Origin: Bacteroides fragilis | GTDB taxonomy: Bacteria > Bacteroidota > Bacteroidia > Bacteroidales > DTGW01 | Length of the DNA: 64,000 nt | Reading direction: 5' to 3' | Assembly: GCA_945889005.1 (NCBI GenBank) | Contig: CAMDBI010000015.1 | Coordinates: 6,961 to 70,960, forward strand | Part shown: piece by piece, positions 17,000 to 20,402 of the stretch | Position numbering within the stretch: the stretch's first letter is position 1 | Layout: every line of letters starts with the position of its first letter | Notes under the pieces: model-generated | Database searches by the model: none | The model's input: the letters and a program-made list of their open reading frames with translations, nothing else | What the model was told of the DNA's origin: nothing | Position numbers and translations under genes: made by a program

Positions 17000-17103
17000 A
17001 ATGTGATAATGTGAAAATATGCAAATATGCAAATATGAAAATGTAAAAATATGGAAATAAGGACTTTGAATTTGCACATTTCCACATTTGTCATTCTCAC
17101 ATT
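17000..17103. repeat. Two opposed 8-bp tandem arrays between hisG and hisD
   Basis: AATGTGAT/AATGTGAA/AATATGCA units followed by complementary-type TTGCACAT/TTCCACAT units. Confidence 0.85.
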
Positions 17104-17960
17104 TAAATAATCATTTTTTCAATAGGAATAACTAGTATTCCTTCTGCACCGGCTGCTTGAAGCTTGTCGATCACTTGCCAAAAGTCTTTTTCGCTTACAA
17201 CCGAGTGTAACGAACTCCATCCTTCGCGTGCCAAAGGTACAATAGACGGGCTTTTCATGCCCGGAATTACTTTAATAATATCGTTAACCTTATCGTTTGG
17301 GGCATTCAGTAGTATATATTTGTTCTTTTTCCCTTTCTGTACGGCACGAAAACGAAACAAAATATCGTTCATAAGATCTTTCTTAGCCTTCGAAATATTT
17401 TTATGAGCAATCATGGCAGCTTCAGAGTGAAGAACAACTTCTACTTCTTTAAGATTGTTGCTAAACAATGTACTTCCCGAGCTCACAATATCAAATATCG
17501 AATCGGCAAGCCCAATTCCGGGTGCTATTTCTACCGAACCACTAATCTCATGTATTTCGGCCTTTACATTGTTTTCTTTCAGAAATTTTTCGAGAATAAT
17601 TGGGTAACTGGTTGCTATTTTCTTTCCATTGAAATAGCCAACACCATTGTATTCCTCCGTTTTAGGAATGGCAAGTGATATACGACACCTGCCAAATCCA
17701 AGTTTTTCGACAATATCTACAGGTTTGCTTTTCTCAAAAACCACATTTTCGCCAACTATACCGGCATCGGCAACACCATCGGCAACATACTGAGGTATAT
17801 CGTCGTCGCGAAGAAATAATATTTCTAAGGGAAAATCGGGAGAACTTGCAATTAATCTGCCACTTCCGGCATTAATACTTATTCCACATTCTGCAAATAG
17901 TGCTTGCGATTTTTCACTCAAACGCCCCGATTTCTGAATTGCAATTTTTAATTTTTCCAT
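17103..17960 (-). CDS. hisG: ATP phosphoribosyltransferase (long form)
   Basis: IAIQKSGRL, RDDDIP, GSVEIAP, DIVSSGSTL. Confidence 0.97.
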   Translation of the reverse strand: MEKLKIAIQKSGRLSEKSQALFAECGISINAGSGRLIASSPDFPLEILFLRDDDIPQYVADGVADAGIVGENVVFEKSKPVDIVEKLGFGRCRISLAIPKTEEYNGVGYFNGKKIATSYPIILEKFLKENNVKAEIHEISGSVEIAPGIGLADSIFDIVSSGSTLFSNNLKEVEVVLHSEAAMIAHKNISKAKKDLMNDILFRFRAVQKGKKNKYILLNAPNDKVNDIIKVIPGMKSPSIVPLAREGWSSLHSVVSEKDFWQVIDKLQAAGAEGILVIPIEKMII

Positions 17961-18065: not shown

Positions 18066-18137
18066 TTAAGGCAACAATCGTCCATGATGGTGATGATGCA
18101 TTGGAATAGATAGGATATGTGTTGTTTGTTTATTCAT
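18066..18137 (-). CDS. hisL: his operon leader peptide MNKQTTHILSIPMHHHHHGRLLP
   Basis: Five tandem His codons in a 23-aa ORF upstream of the terminator and hisG. Confidence 0.9.
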   Translation of the reverse strand: MNKQTTHILSIPMHHHHHGRLLP

Positions 18138-18274: not shown

Positions 18275-19201
18275 TTATATCCCCCCCCCATCGCTAAACA
18301 TATTTTCCTTAGCTCGTTGTTGTATAATTTTAGAATAGGGGGGTAAATCGTAAGTAACCCAAACGTTTCCTCCTACTACAGAGCCCTTTCCAATGGTAAT
18401 ACGACCCAAGATAGTGGCATGTGAGTAAATTGTAACTTCGTCTTCGACAATTGGGTGGCGTGGTATACCTTTTATTGGGTTGCCCTGTGCATCGACCGGA
18501 AAACTCTTGGCTCCCAGCGTTACACCCTGATACAACATAACATTATTGCCAATTATACACGTTTCACCTATTACAATTCCTGTGCCGTGGTCTATAGTAA
18601 AGTAGTCGCCAATGCTTGCCCCCGGATGAATATCGATACCTGTTTCGGAATGTGCCATCTCAGAAATAATACGAGGTATTATCGGAACGCCCAATTTAAA
18701 AAAAGAATTGGCTATTCGATAGTTTGTAATTGCTTTAATTCCCGGGTATGCAAATATTATTTCGCCATACGATTTCGCTGCCGGATCGTTCAAAAAAGTA
18801 GCATGCACATCTTTTGATAATTTTTCGCGCAGAAAAGGCAATTGTTCAATATACTTCAATGCAATGCTGTCTCCATCTGCTTTACATTCGTTGCAGCTAG
18901 CATCAAATTGGTTGTCGCAATTGAAGCAAAACCCATTATTTATTTGCCGAACAAGTAGTTTGTAAAGATTATCGACATTGACACCCAGATAATATTTCAT
19001 GGAGTCTGGCTTTATTGCTTGATTACCAAAAAAACCCGGAAATAAAATCTCTCTTGTTAAATCGACAATTTCTTTAATTGCATTGACCGACAGTATTTCT
19101 TGATTTTTTAATGGATGATGATAGCTGCTTTCATACGATTTGGGGTCAGATAATGTCTTTATTACTTTGCCCAGTTCATGGGAAATATGTTGTGCATTCA
19201 T
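18275..19201 (-). CDS. cysE: Serine O-acetyltransferase (EpsC/CysE type)
   Basis: DPAA, TGIDIHPGA, IDHGTGIVIGET, RHP hexapeptide-repeat domain. Confidence 0.93.
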   Translation of the reverse strand: MNAQHISHELGKVIKTLSDPKSYESSYHHPLKNQEILSVNAIKEIVDLTREILFPGFFGNQAIKPDSMKYYLGVNVDNLYKLLVRQINNGFCFNCDNQFDASCNECKADGDSIALKYIEQLPFLREKLSKDVHATFLNDPAAKSYGEIIFAYPGIKAITNYRIANSFFKLGVPIIPRIISEMAHSETGIDIHPGASIGDYFTIDHGTGIVIGETCIIGNNVMLYQGVTLGAKSFPVDAQGNPIKGIPRHPIVEDEVTIYSHATILGRITIGKGSVVGGNVWVTYDLPPYSKIIQQRAKENMFSDGGGI

Positions 19202-19243
19202 AGAGAATGATTTTTTAATAATTAAGATATGGAAAATTGAAAC

Positions 19244-19278
19244 AAAAAAAATCGAATGTTGTTTATTTACAACATCGA
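19244..19278 (-). terminator. Attenuator terminator overlapping the Cys leader
   Basis: Minus strand TCGATGTTGT-AAATAA-ACAACATTCGA followed by T8. Confidence 0.8.
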
Positions 19279-19319
19279 CAACAACAAAATGAAAATGCTA
19301 TGAAGGAAAGGTGAAGCAT
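19263..19319 (-). CDS. Cys-rich leader peptide MLHLSFIAFSFCCCRCCK
   Basis: 18-aa ORF with five TGT codons, directly upstream of serine acetyltransferase. Confidence 0.82.
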   Translation of the reverse strand: MLHLSFIAFSFCCCRCCK

Positions 19320-19337
19320 TTGAAAAGTAATTTTTTA

Positions 19338-19367
19338 CAAAAATACAAAACTGATTGAAATAACAAA
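19338..19367 (-). promoter_or_regulatory. Bacteroidota promoter for the Cys leader and cysE
   Basis: TTTG (19367-19364), 18-nt spacer, TATTTTTG (19345-19338). Confidence 0.65.
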
Positions 19368-19391
19368 TTATTTTGTAATTTATTATTTATA

Positions 19392-19562
19392 GGGCATCTC
19401 TAAAAACTGCTTTTTTGCTACGCTGAGCCCTTCGGGGTTCTTTGTTAGACTTCATTTTTAAAGTCCTCATTTCGGCTGTCGCTCAGTGAAACACATTTAC
19501 TGTAGTAAACTCAGGGTTTAAAAATTCGTCCGCCTCAAAAAATCGAGTTTTTAGAGACGCCC
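19392..19562. mobile_element. MITE-like element, 171 bp
   Basis: 17-bp terminal inverted repeats GGGCATCTCTAAAAACT / AGTTTTTAGAGACGCCC (1 mismatch); no ORF; no clear target duplication. Confidence 0.7.
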
Positions 19563-19688
19563 ACAAGTCGAAGTAATTGAAAAATCTAGATTCAAAAAGT
19601 TTTGCTGGACAACAATGTTAAATTTTGAATTAAATTTTGAACTTTTTTGCTAAAAAATTTGTTAGTTTTGAAGTTTAATAGATTTTGT

Positions 19689-20402
19689 ATGCAAACCGAA
19701 CAAATAAACCATTGGAATGACTATTTCAAATCGGCTACTCCAAAAGAAGTAATAAGCTATTTTGCCGATTTGTACAAAGGACGTATTGCTTTGGCATCGA
19801 GTCTTGGTGCAGAAGATCAAGTGCTTACCGAAATGATTTGCAGCATCGACAAAACAATCAACATATTCACACTTGATACAGGACGATTGTTTCCCGAATC
19901 GTACCAATTGATTGACGATACAAATAAAAAATACGTCATAAACATTGACATATACTTTCCCGATTCTGCGAAAGTAGAACAGATGGTAAAGACTAAAGGT
20001 GTCAATTTGTTTTACGACAGTGTTGAAAACCGCAAACAATGTTGTAATGTACGAAAAATTGAACTTTTGAAACGAGCCATGTGCAAGCTCGATATTTGGA
20101 TTTGTGGCTTGCGTAAAGATCAATCTATTACTCGGTTTTCGTCGAAGCTTGTCGAATGGGACGATGCCAATGGACTAATTAAAATTAATCCATTAATTAA
20201 CTGGACTGAAAAGCAAGTATGGGACTATATAAAACAAAAAAACATACCTTATAATACCTTACACGACAAAGGATTTCCGAGTATTGGTTGTCAACCATGC
20301 ACCCGTGCAATCGAAAAAGGAGAAGATGTACGTGCCGGTCGTTGGTGGTGGGAAATGCCCGAACATAAAGAATGCGGTTTACACAACAGACCCAATAAAT
20401 AG
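19689..20402 (+). CDS. cysH: Adenylyl-sulfate (APS/PAPS) reductase
   Basis: LDTG, CC-x-CxxC (QCCNVRK, SIGCQPCT), RAGRW, ECGLH; start at ATG 19689. Confidence 0.93.
   Translation: MQTEQINHWNDYFKSATPKEVISYFADLYKGRIALASSLGAEDQVLTEMICSIDKTINIFTLDTGRLFPESYQLIDDTNKKYVINIDIYFPDSAKVEQMVKTKGVNLFYDSVENRKQCCNVRKIELLKRAMCKLDIWICGLRKDQSITRFSSKLVEWDDANGLIKINPLINWTEKQVWDYIKQKNIPYNTLHDKGFPSIGCQPCTRAIEKGEDVRAGRWWWEMPEHKECGLHNRPNK

Follow-up and report, generated by a model that had tools for sequence, protein, structure and literature searches.

Does the short cysteine-rich open reading frame (ORF) that precedes the serine acetyltransferase gene cysE allow the translating ribosome to adjust cysE transcription to the supply of cysteine? 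Cysteine synthesis is known to be controlled by CysB/CymR-type regulators, by T-boxes and by feedback inhibition. The first-pass annotation of the window (the whole 64,000-nucleotide stretch of DNA that was analysed) had instead read this locus as a minimal attenuator, in which a ribosome stalled on cysteine codons masks one arm of a terminator. On balance we lean towards the reading that the leader is a ribosome-mediated, cysteine-sensing transcription attenuator of cysE. The features of the locus are as follows.

19647-20402, plus strand: cysH, phosphoadenylyl-sulfate reductase, the divergent neighbour (Pfam / NCBIfam)
19364..19367, minus strand: TTTG, candidate -33 promoter element, read from the sequence, 18 nt upstream of TATTTTTG
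19338..19345, minus strand: TATTTTTG, a -7-like box that matches TAnnTTTG and ends 18 nt before the leader ATG
19293..19321, minus strand: weak upstream hairpin enclosing the leader start codon, AAAUGCU / AGCAUUU (7 bp, 15-nt loop; MFE structures)
19263..19319, minus strand: leader ORF of 18 codons plus TAA, encoding MLHLSFIAFSFCCCRCCK; ATG at 19319-19317, TAA at 19265-19263
19269..19286, minus strand: putative sensor block TGT TGT TGT CGA TGT TGT, codons 12-17 (sequence reading)
19269..19278, minus strand: predicted terminator 5' arm TCGATGTTGT, the last base of codon 14 plus codons 15-17 (Arg-Cys-Cys) (sequence and RNAfold)
19263..19268, minus strand: hairpin loop AAATAA, which is exactly the Lys18 codon plus the TAA stop (sequence and RNAfold)
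19252..19262, minus strand: predicted terminator 3' arm ACAACATTCGA, with one bulged T (sequence and RNAfold)
19244..19251, minus strand: T8 tract, followed by GTTTC, which prolongs the T-rich stretch (sequence reading)
18275..19201, minus strand: cysE, serine O-acetyltransferase of the Bacteroides 3f1x type, 308 aa (PDB and NCBIfam matches)

The product of cysE matched the solved serine acetyltransferase PDB 3f1x over nearly its full length (residues 9-301, E = 6e-107) and scored 155.6 bits against the EpsC-type serine O-acetyltransferase family NCBIfam NF041874, for which the cut-off is 150. It scored below the cut-off of TIGR01172, and Pfam recognised only its hexapeptide repeats. No minus-strand gene lies upstream of the leader terminator that would need termination.

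The box TATTTTTG conforms to TAnnTTTG, which we take to be the Bacteroidetes -7 promoter consensus, with TTTG presumably serving as the -33 element. As this box ends 18 nt before the ATG, the leader mRNA probably carries a short 5' UTR rather than being leaderless. The leader ATG is the sole ATG start, and an in-frame TAA stands five codons upstream of it. The Cys codons are numbers 12, 13, 14, 16 and 17, all five of them TGT, and codon 15 is CGA. The hairpin consists of 10 pairs plus the one bulged T, and the T8 tract comes next. The cysE ATG at 19201 is 42 nt past the T8 tract, 50 nt from the hairpin end and 62 nt from the leader ORF, and the cysE initiation region lies outside the hairpin. 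The codons that would act as sensor, the stop codon and the terminator are fused within ~35 nt. The promoter, ORF, hairpin, T8 tract and cysE spacing had been given correctly, base for base, in the first-pass annotation, and our reading of the sequence bears out its statements that the 5' arm is made of the Arg-Cys-Cys codons and that the stop codon lies in the loop.

Folding of the 151-nt leader with RNAfold placed the terminator hairpin in both the MFE and the centroid structures. The fold had a z-score of -2.3, with 4 of 200 shuffled sequences folding equally well. Folded alone, the hairpin has a predicted energy of -10.5 kcal/mol, a value that describes a predicted terminator only. A simple terminator scan listed the terminator of a his leader elsewhere in the window and did not list the cysE leader hairpin; we think that the bulge lies behind this absence.

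That his leader, MNKQTTHILSIPMHHHHHGRLLP, is rich in His codons and is located at window positions 18066-18137 (minus strand), with its terminator at 18012-17985 (minus strand) and hisG downstream (17103-17960). Its match to the Rfam family His_leader is weak (27.8 bits, gathering score 49, E = 0.058). Leader attenuation appears to be in use in this organism, because a His-codon leader and a terminator precede hisG.

On the other side of the leader promoter, the listed cysH start is a TTG at 19647, and an ATG at ~19689 (MQTEQINH...) is likelier; the upstream 45 nt are A/T-rich and include a TTTG motif. Between the leader promoter and cysH, window positions 19390-19563 hold an element of ~175 nt that is GC-richer and has long inverted repeats at its ends, GGGCATCTCTAAAAAC...GTTTTTAGAGACGCCC. 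Either strand gives a strong fold (z = -3.0 and -4.0), and the genome contains more than 30 copies of the element at 72-95% identity. We rejected this inverted repeat as a structured RNA: with dozens of copies it looks like a MITE, and it lies outside the switch.

The occurrence of poly-Cys leaders was surveyed in the whole genome by collecting all intergenic ATG-initiated short ORFs of 8-45 aa (n = 6139). At least four Cys within seven residues were found in only four of these, at four loci. Three of the four lie upstream of cysteine or sulfur genes, namely 62 nt before cysE, 100 nt before cysK and 119 nt before an operon with DUF2061, siroheme and cysJI genes. The fourth, on contig C18, was rejected because it is antisense to a small gene. 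A frame-independent search of the same genome for four Cys codons within seven yielded no extra intergenic candidate. Cys makes up 0.9% of codons (997 long ORFs), and tRNA-Cys(GCA) is encoded only once. All three credible poly-Cys short ORFs precede cysteine/sulfur-assimilation units, and the Cys run is therefore not due to chance. The Cys leader that the first-pass annotation had noted before cysE alone is in this way placed in a multi-locus set, to which the scan adds cysK and the siroheme/sulfite-reductase operon.

The cysK leader, MTLNLNISCCCCCNVSHKNGSNDCVKM, has five Cys residues and a strong terminator (G000 contig C3:83188-83271, plus strand; L031:1317-1400). A 7-bp antiterminator candidate, AUGGAAG/CUUCCAU, is present as well, and the CysK product scored 416 bits against TIGR01139 (cut-off 351). 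The third leader ends in GCCSCCCCS (G000 contig C33:15354-15452, plus strand; L254:55-153) and is followed by the operon DUF2061-sirC-hemA-hemCD/cobA-hemB-hemL-cysJ-cysI. The domains encoded there are DUF2061, a siroheme-synthase-like NAD-binding domain, GlutR, a HemC-methylase-HemD fusion, HemB, HemL, a sulfite-reductase flavoprotein and an NIR_SIR hemoprotein. The hairpin there is weak and ill-defined (-8.1 kcal/mol across 123 nt; a T9 run follows), and this element is a Cys leader that ranks as a candidate attenuator only. No Cys leader was found at cysDN or cysH of the same genome, which weighs against the attenuator reading of the cysE leader.

Relatives of the leader were sought in 41 related genomes and in metagenome contigs, where the best cysE identities were 64% and 58%, respectively. 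No close relative, as would serve for conservation or covariation, was found in either set. The 41-genome search supplied 30 cysE loci, one of them from the organism's own genome; 28 of the 30 have no Cys short ORF within 450 nt upstream, and only the own genome and genome G002 have one. Among the metagenome cysE loci, 46 of 63 were examined (the 17 left out were the weakest matches and one fragment), and none of the 46 has a run of at least three Cys. Six metagenome loci (L079, L094 and L097-L100) have a short ORF with a CC pair. The one at L094, MICIKTVDTVCCFIIR, lies ~98-47 nt upstream of a metagenomic cysE homologue and, with its Cys pair, may be a two-Cys leader.

Genome G002 belongs to a sister genus in the same family. 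Its cysE is 60% identical and is preceded by the leader MIQKNFNGGFISVQGNCCCCLIR. In foldings with a masked ribosome footprint, a 9-bp antiterminator formed between the stop-codon region and the terminator 5' arm when the ribosome was on the Cys codons, and it was lost when the ribosome was on the stop codon. As modelled in this way, the G002 cysE leader is a textbook Cys attenuator. Its promoter and Cys-run blocks align with those of the own cysE leader; as only two AT-rich sequences are compared, this is weak evidence for common descent. A terminator-like hairpin also lies upstream of the G002 cysK, where the contig ends 68 nt upstream of the gene.

Beyond these two genomes, a survey upstream of cysE and cysK genes of Bacteroidota, which the first-pass annotation had proposed, did find leaders with Cys runs. 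The CysK protein is 65-81% identical to those in named records of Bacteroidales (Draconibacterium, Mariniphaga, Sunxiuqinia), Chitinophagales, Flavobacterium and Ignavibacteria/Melioribacter. We applied a strict filter that accepted only intergenic leaders in which a Cys run is combined with a terminator of at most -6 kcal/mol and a long ORF follows downstream. It was passed by 27 of the 254 loci collected overall, by 18 of 80 cysK loci from the named Bacteroidales, Chitinophagales, Flavobacterium and Ignavibacteria records, and by 4 of 29 loci in an evenly drawn sample of the phylum. Cys-run leaders with terminators thus also stand before cysK or cysE-cysK in many Bacteroidota and Ignavibacteria. 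In 12 of the 27 Cys leaders, 8-40 nt separate the end of a TAnnTTTG box from the leader ATG; among random ATGs this holds for 10 of 334. At DUF2061 loci of other genomes, one of 12 (L129) has a Cys/Met-rich leader with an antiterminator-terminator arrangement. Judged by sequence, the Cys-leader family is real and widespread, yet patchy.

Two variants of the cysK leaders were observed in passing. At four Draconibacterium loci (L179, L180, L182 and L242) the leader MKNTGNNMMMCCCFLKNGKGVVVF, ~100 nt upstream of cysK, contains three Met codons directly followed by three Cys codons and may report both sulfur amino acids. At L219:1269-1489, a single cysK is preceded by two tandem Cys-codon leaders, both of which have a terminator of their own.

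The cysE leader of the window differs from the rest of the family in its geometry. In 26 of the 27 leaders, 24-88 nt lie between the first base of the stop codon and the beginning of the terminator 5' arm, and the T run of those 26 begins 46-112 nt downstream of that base. The arm of the window's cysE leader begins 14 nt upstream of the stop codon and its T run 14 nt downstream, making it the only one of the 27 whose terminator starts before the stop codon. Its stem is A/U-rich, bulged and weaker than those of most others (-10.5 kcal/mol compared to -10.9 to -21). When the RNA was folded without the 3' arm, the 5' arm paired with AUAGCAUU (codons 7-9) through 8 bp, three of them G-U, at -6.1 kcal/mol. 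This segment is the 3' side of the weak upstream hairpin and the only alternative partner found for the 5' arm. It would be unusable as a ribosome-released antiterminator because a ribosome that stalls at the Cys codons would cover it. The claim that the locus has no separate antiterminator is borne out to the extent that folding revealed none that a ribosome could control.

Compact look-alikes were searched for in the 41 genomes with a pattern of three Cys codons followed by T7 within 3-40 nt, and ~150 of the ~570 matches were listed. Eight look-alike hairpins among the matches listed were rejected as ordinary terminators or coding sequence; in none of the eight does a Cys-encoding frame that has a start codon precede a cysteine gene. 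As predicted from its fold, the cysE leader is a structurally distinct, minimal variant of the family and the most stripped-down among those compared. Cys runs, on whose conservation the first-pass annotation had made its reading depend, recur across the family and are absent from most cysE loci; among the 27 leaders, the overlapping hairpin is confined to this one.

In the cysteine-sensing scheme that we favour, transcription would start a few bases past the TAnnTTTG box and the 18-codon leader would be translated. Where the 5' arm is free, the hairpin and the T8 tract would stop most transcripts 42 nt before cysE. Where Cys-tRNA is scarce, the ribosome would stall once any of the five TGT codons had entered its A site; already at codon 12, and at every later codon, the footprint of the stalled ribosome would cover the base of the 5' arm, the hairpin would be blocked and RNA polymerase would read through into cysE. 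The ribosome would itself act as the anti-terminator, unlike in the related leaders. With plentiful cysteine, termination would return, and this is the weakest step of the scheme.

The masking was modelled by folding with an assumed footprint that reaches 15 nt to the 5' side and 14 nt to the 3' side of the first base of the A-site codon, which is a typical size for a ribosome. The MFE structure lost the terminator when the A site was set at codon 12 or at codon 17, and it lost the terminator likewise when the ribosome was on the stop codon. In classical leaders, the stop codon is positioned so that a ribosome finishing there obstructs the antiterminator and the terminator can form. Here the stop codon is 14-21 nt from the T tract, and the shortest ribosome-to-polymerase spacing in expressome structures is roughly 23-30 nt. 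We infer that a ribosome keeping pace with the polymerase would mask the hairpin whatever the cysteine supply, and that a ribosome trailing at a distance, the Cys codons not yet having been reached, would leave it unmasked at low and high cysteine alike. Under simple one-pass kinetics the compact design would not discriminate, because a pacing ribosome always masks and a lagging one never does. The earlier proposal that a stalled ribosome masks the terminator arm is thus supported for the Cys codons and is complicated by the ribosome on the stop codon, which masks it too. The wider proposal of a minimal attenuator stands in its anatomy, its family and its gene set, and it is the discrimination between low and high cysteine that is questionable. 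The geometry shared with no other of the 27 leaders, the comparatively weak stem and the lack of a Cys leader at most cysE orthologues also count against the cysteine-sensing reading.

Discrimination could be restored if the leader were a release-timed, one-hairpin attenuator, in which the speed of ribosome clearance sets the decision without a competing helix, a reading that we put forward as speculative and rather improbable. By the distances involved, a ribosome that has come to the loop stop codon would touch a polymerase that has just transcribed the T8-GTTT tract to its end. With plentiful cysteine, the peptide would be released and the ribosome would leave while the polymerase dwells on the weak U-rich hybrid; the freed hairpin would then snap shut and transcription would end. 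With scarce Cys-tRNA, the ribosome would stay parked on the arm until the polymerase escapes.

The same foldings would also suit a leader that is an attenuator sensing translation or its coupling to transcription rather than cysteine. Any leader ribosome would then block the hairpin, the element would report that the leader is translated close behind the polymerase, and the Cys codons, inherited from a classical ancestor, would add little discrimination. The loss of the terminator with a ribosome at any of the three positions modelled (codon 12, codon 17 or the stop codon) agrees with this, as do the lack of a usable antiterminator and the block alignment with the G002 leader, which points to an ancestor of the classical kind. 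What a pure coupling sensor would not need is a block of six codons with five for Cys, in a genome that uses Cys so sparingly, or two more poly-Cys leaders before Cys genes, and we consider this explanation unlikely. The leader could also be a remnant, decayed or simplified, whose hairpin terminates constitutively and in part and so damps cysE, with the real control exerted by cysteine feedback inhibition. Such decay would fit a geometry that is unique among the 27 leaders, a weak A/U-rich stem and the absence of a leader from most cysE orthologues. The 10-bp complementarity between Cys codons and 3' arm, the T8 tract and the intact frame from ATG to stop would be unexpected without selection, however, and no disruption of the frame is seen; a remnant therefore appears quite improbable to us.

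The site could, finally, be an independent small gene or sRNA without a part in cysE control, giving a hydrophobic, Cys-rich peptide of 18 residues or an RNA of ~85 nt; in favour of this, its promoter, ORF and terminator make up a self-contained small transcription unit. A search with Rfam 15 gave no match at the gathering threshold in the 64-kb window, so that the Rfam comparison suggested in the first-pass annotation assigned the leader to no family at that threshold. A permissive search over the leader returned chance-level matches only, the best being a very weak cmscan match to the Burkholderia sRNA ncS16 (E = 1.4, 18.6 bits, gathering score 48), which is not significant. The position directly before cysE and the parallel leaders of cysK and the sulfite-reductase operon argue for control in cis, and an unrelated gene is, in our judgement, very unlikely.

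Cys-codon leaders would give a phylum that is prominent in the environment and in the gut a third control route for cysteine synthesis, acting on cysE, cysK and the sulfite-reductase operon. If the cysE leader responds to cysteine, it would set a lower limit on what a leader-peptide attenuator needs, provide a compact test bed for the ribosome-polymerase distance in Bacteroidota and offer a small cysteine-responsive part for engineering. If it does not respond, it would show how such switches decay. Should the release-timed reading prove true, the leader would represent a kinetic class of amino-acid attenuator not described so far.

Comparison with known systems places the cysE leader between several of them. 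The classical leader-peptide attenuators are those of enterobacterial trpL, hisL, leuL and thrL. Like these, the cysE leader has a short ORF with a run of codons for the end product and a terminator-like hairpin between the leader and the first biosynthetic gene, and the ribosome is the proposed sensor. Unlike these, it has no ribosome-controlled antiterminator (the G002 leader has one), its putative sensor codons lie in the terminator 5' arm with the stop codon in the loop, and a finishing ribosome at the stop codon would mask the terminator instead of freeing it. The E. coli pyrBI, pyrE and ampC leaders are ribosome-occlusion attenuators that lack an antiterminator. As in those leaders, the cysE leader ORF overlaps the terminator hairpin and no antiterminator is present; the leader ribosome itself prevents the hairpin there, and the same is proposed here. 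They differ in sensing polymerase pausing at low UTP or ribosome abundance, without a run of a single codon.

A literature search, whose coverage leaves most subscription journals outside, found no published Cys leader attenuator in Bacteroidota, in agreement with the first-pass remark that none had been characterised, and the Cys-leader family appears to be unpublished for this phylum. Attenuation as such is on record there, in the accessible part of a study on the ilvE and hisG leader peptides of Flavobacterium psychrophilum (PMC9723704); neither cysK nor cysE was found in those of its supplementary files that were accessible. Poly-Cys leaderless short ORFs forming a 'Cys ribulon' are described for mycobacteria (bioRxiv 10.1101/834739, accessible portion), and Cys leader peptides for Actinobacteria, where terminators were not found according to the available text (PMC1262725). 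As far as these portions go, the likeness is that several poly-Cys short ORFs precede cysteine or sulfur genes in one genome and that ribosome stalling within the Cys tract is itself what keeps an RNA structure from forming, as is proposed for the cysE leader. Unlike the actinobacterial Cys leaders as described there, the cysE leader has a hairpin and a T8 tract that ends 42 nt before the cysE start; unlike the mycobacterial leaderless ORFs, its mRNA probably has a short 5' UTR, and the phylum is another.

The uORFC-8-2 motif upstream of cysS in Rhodobacterales (PMC8632094) was compared by its description in the accessible part of that source, and it is not in Rfam as searched. In that description it shares with the cysE leader tandem Cys codons inside a stem and a U run consistent with an intrinsic terminator, and it differs in controlling a cysteinyl-tRNA synthetase, in having two stems and two Cys codons and in belonging to alpha-proteobacteria. 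In actinobacterial ilvB leaders, runs of Ile/Val/Leu codons overlap candidate terminator hairpins with poly-U next; the mode of regulation is given as unclear, and codon substitutions in S. coelicolor were without effect (PMC1262725, as far as its accessible text goes). On that account, the cysE leader resembles the ilvB leaders in that its putative regulatory codons overlap a hairpin followed by a U run, and the two differ in their amino acids and phylum.
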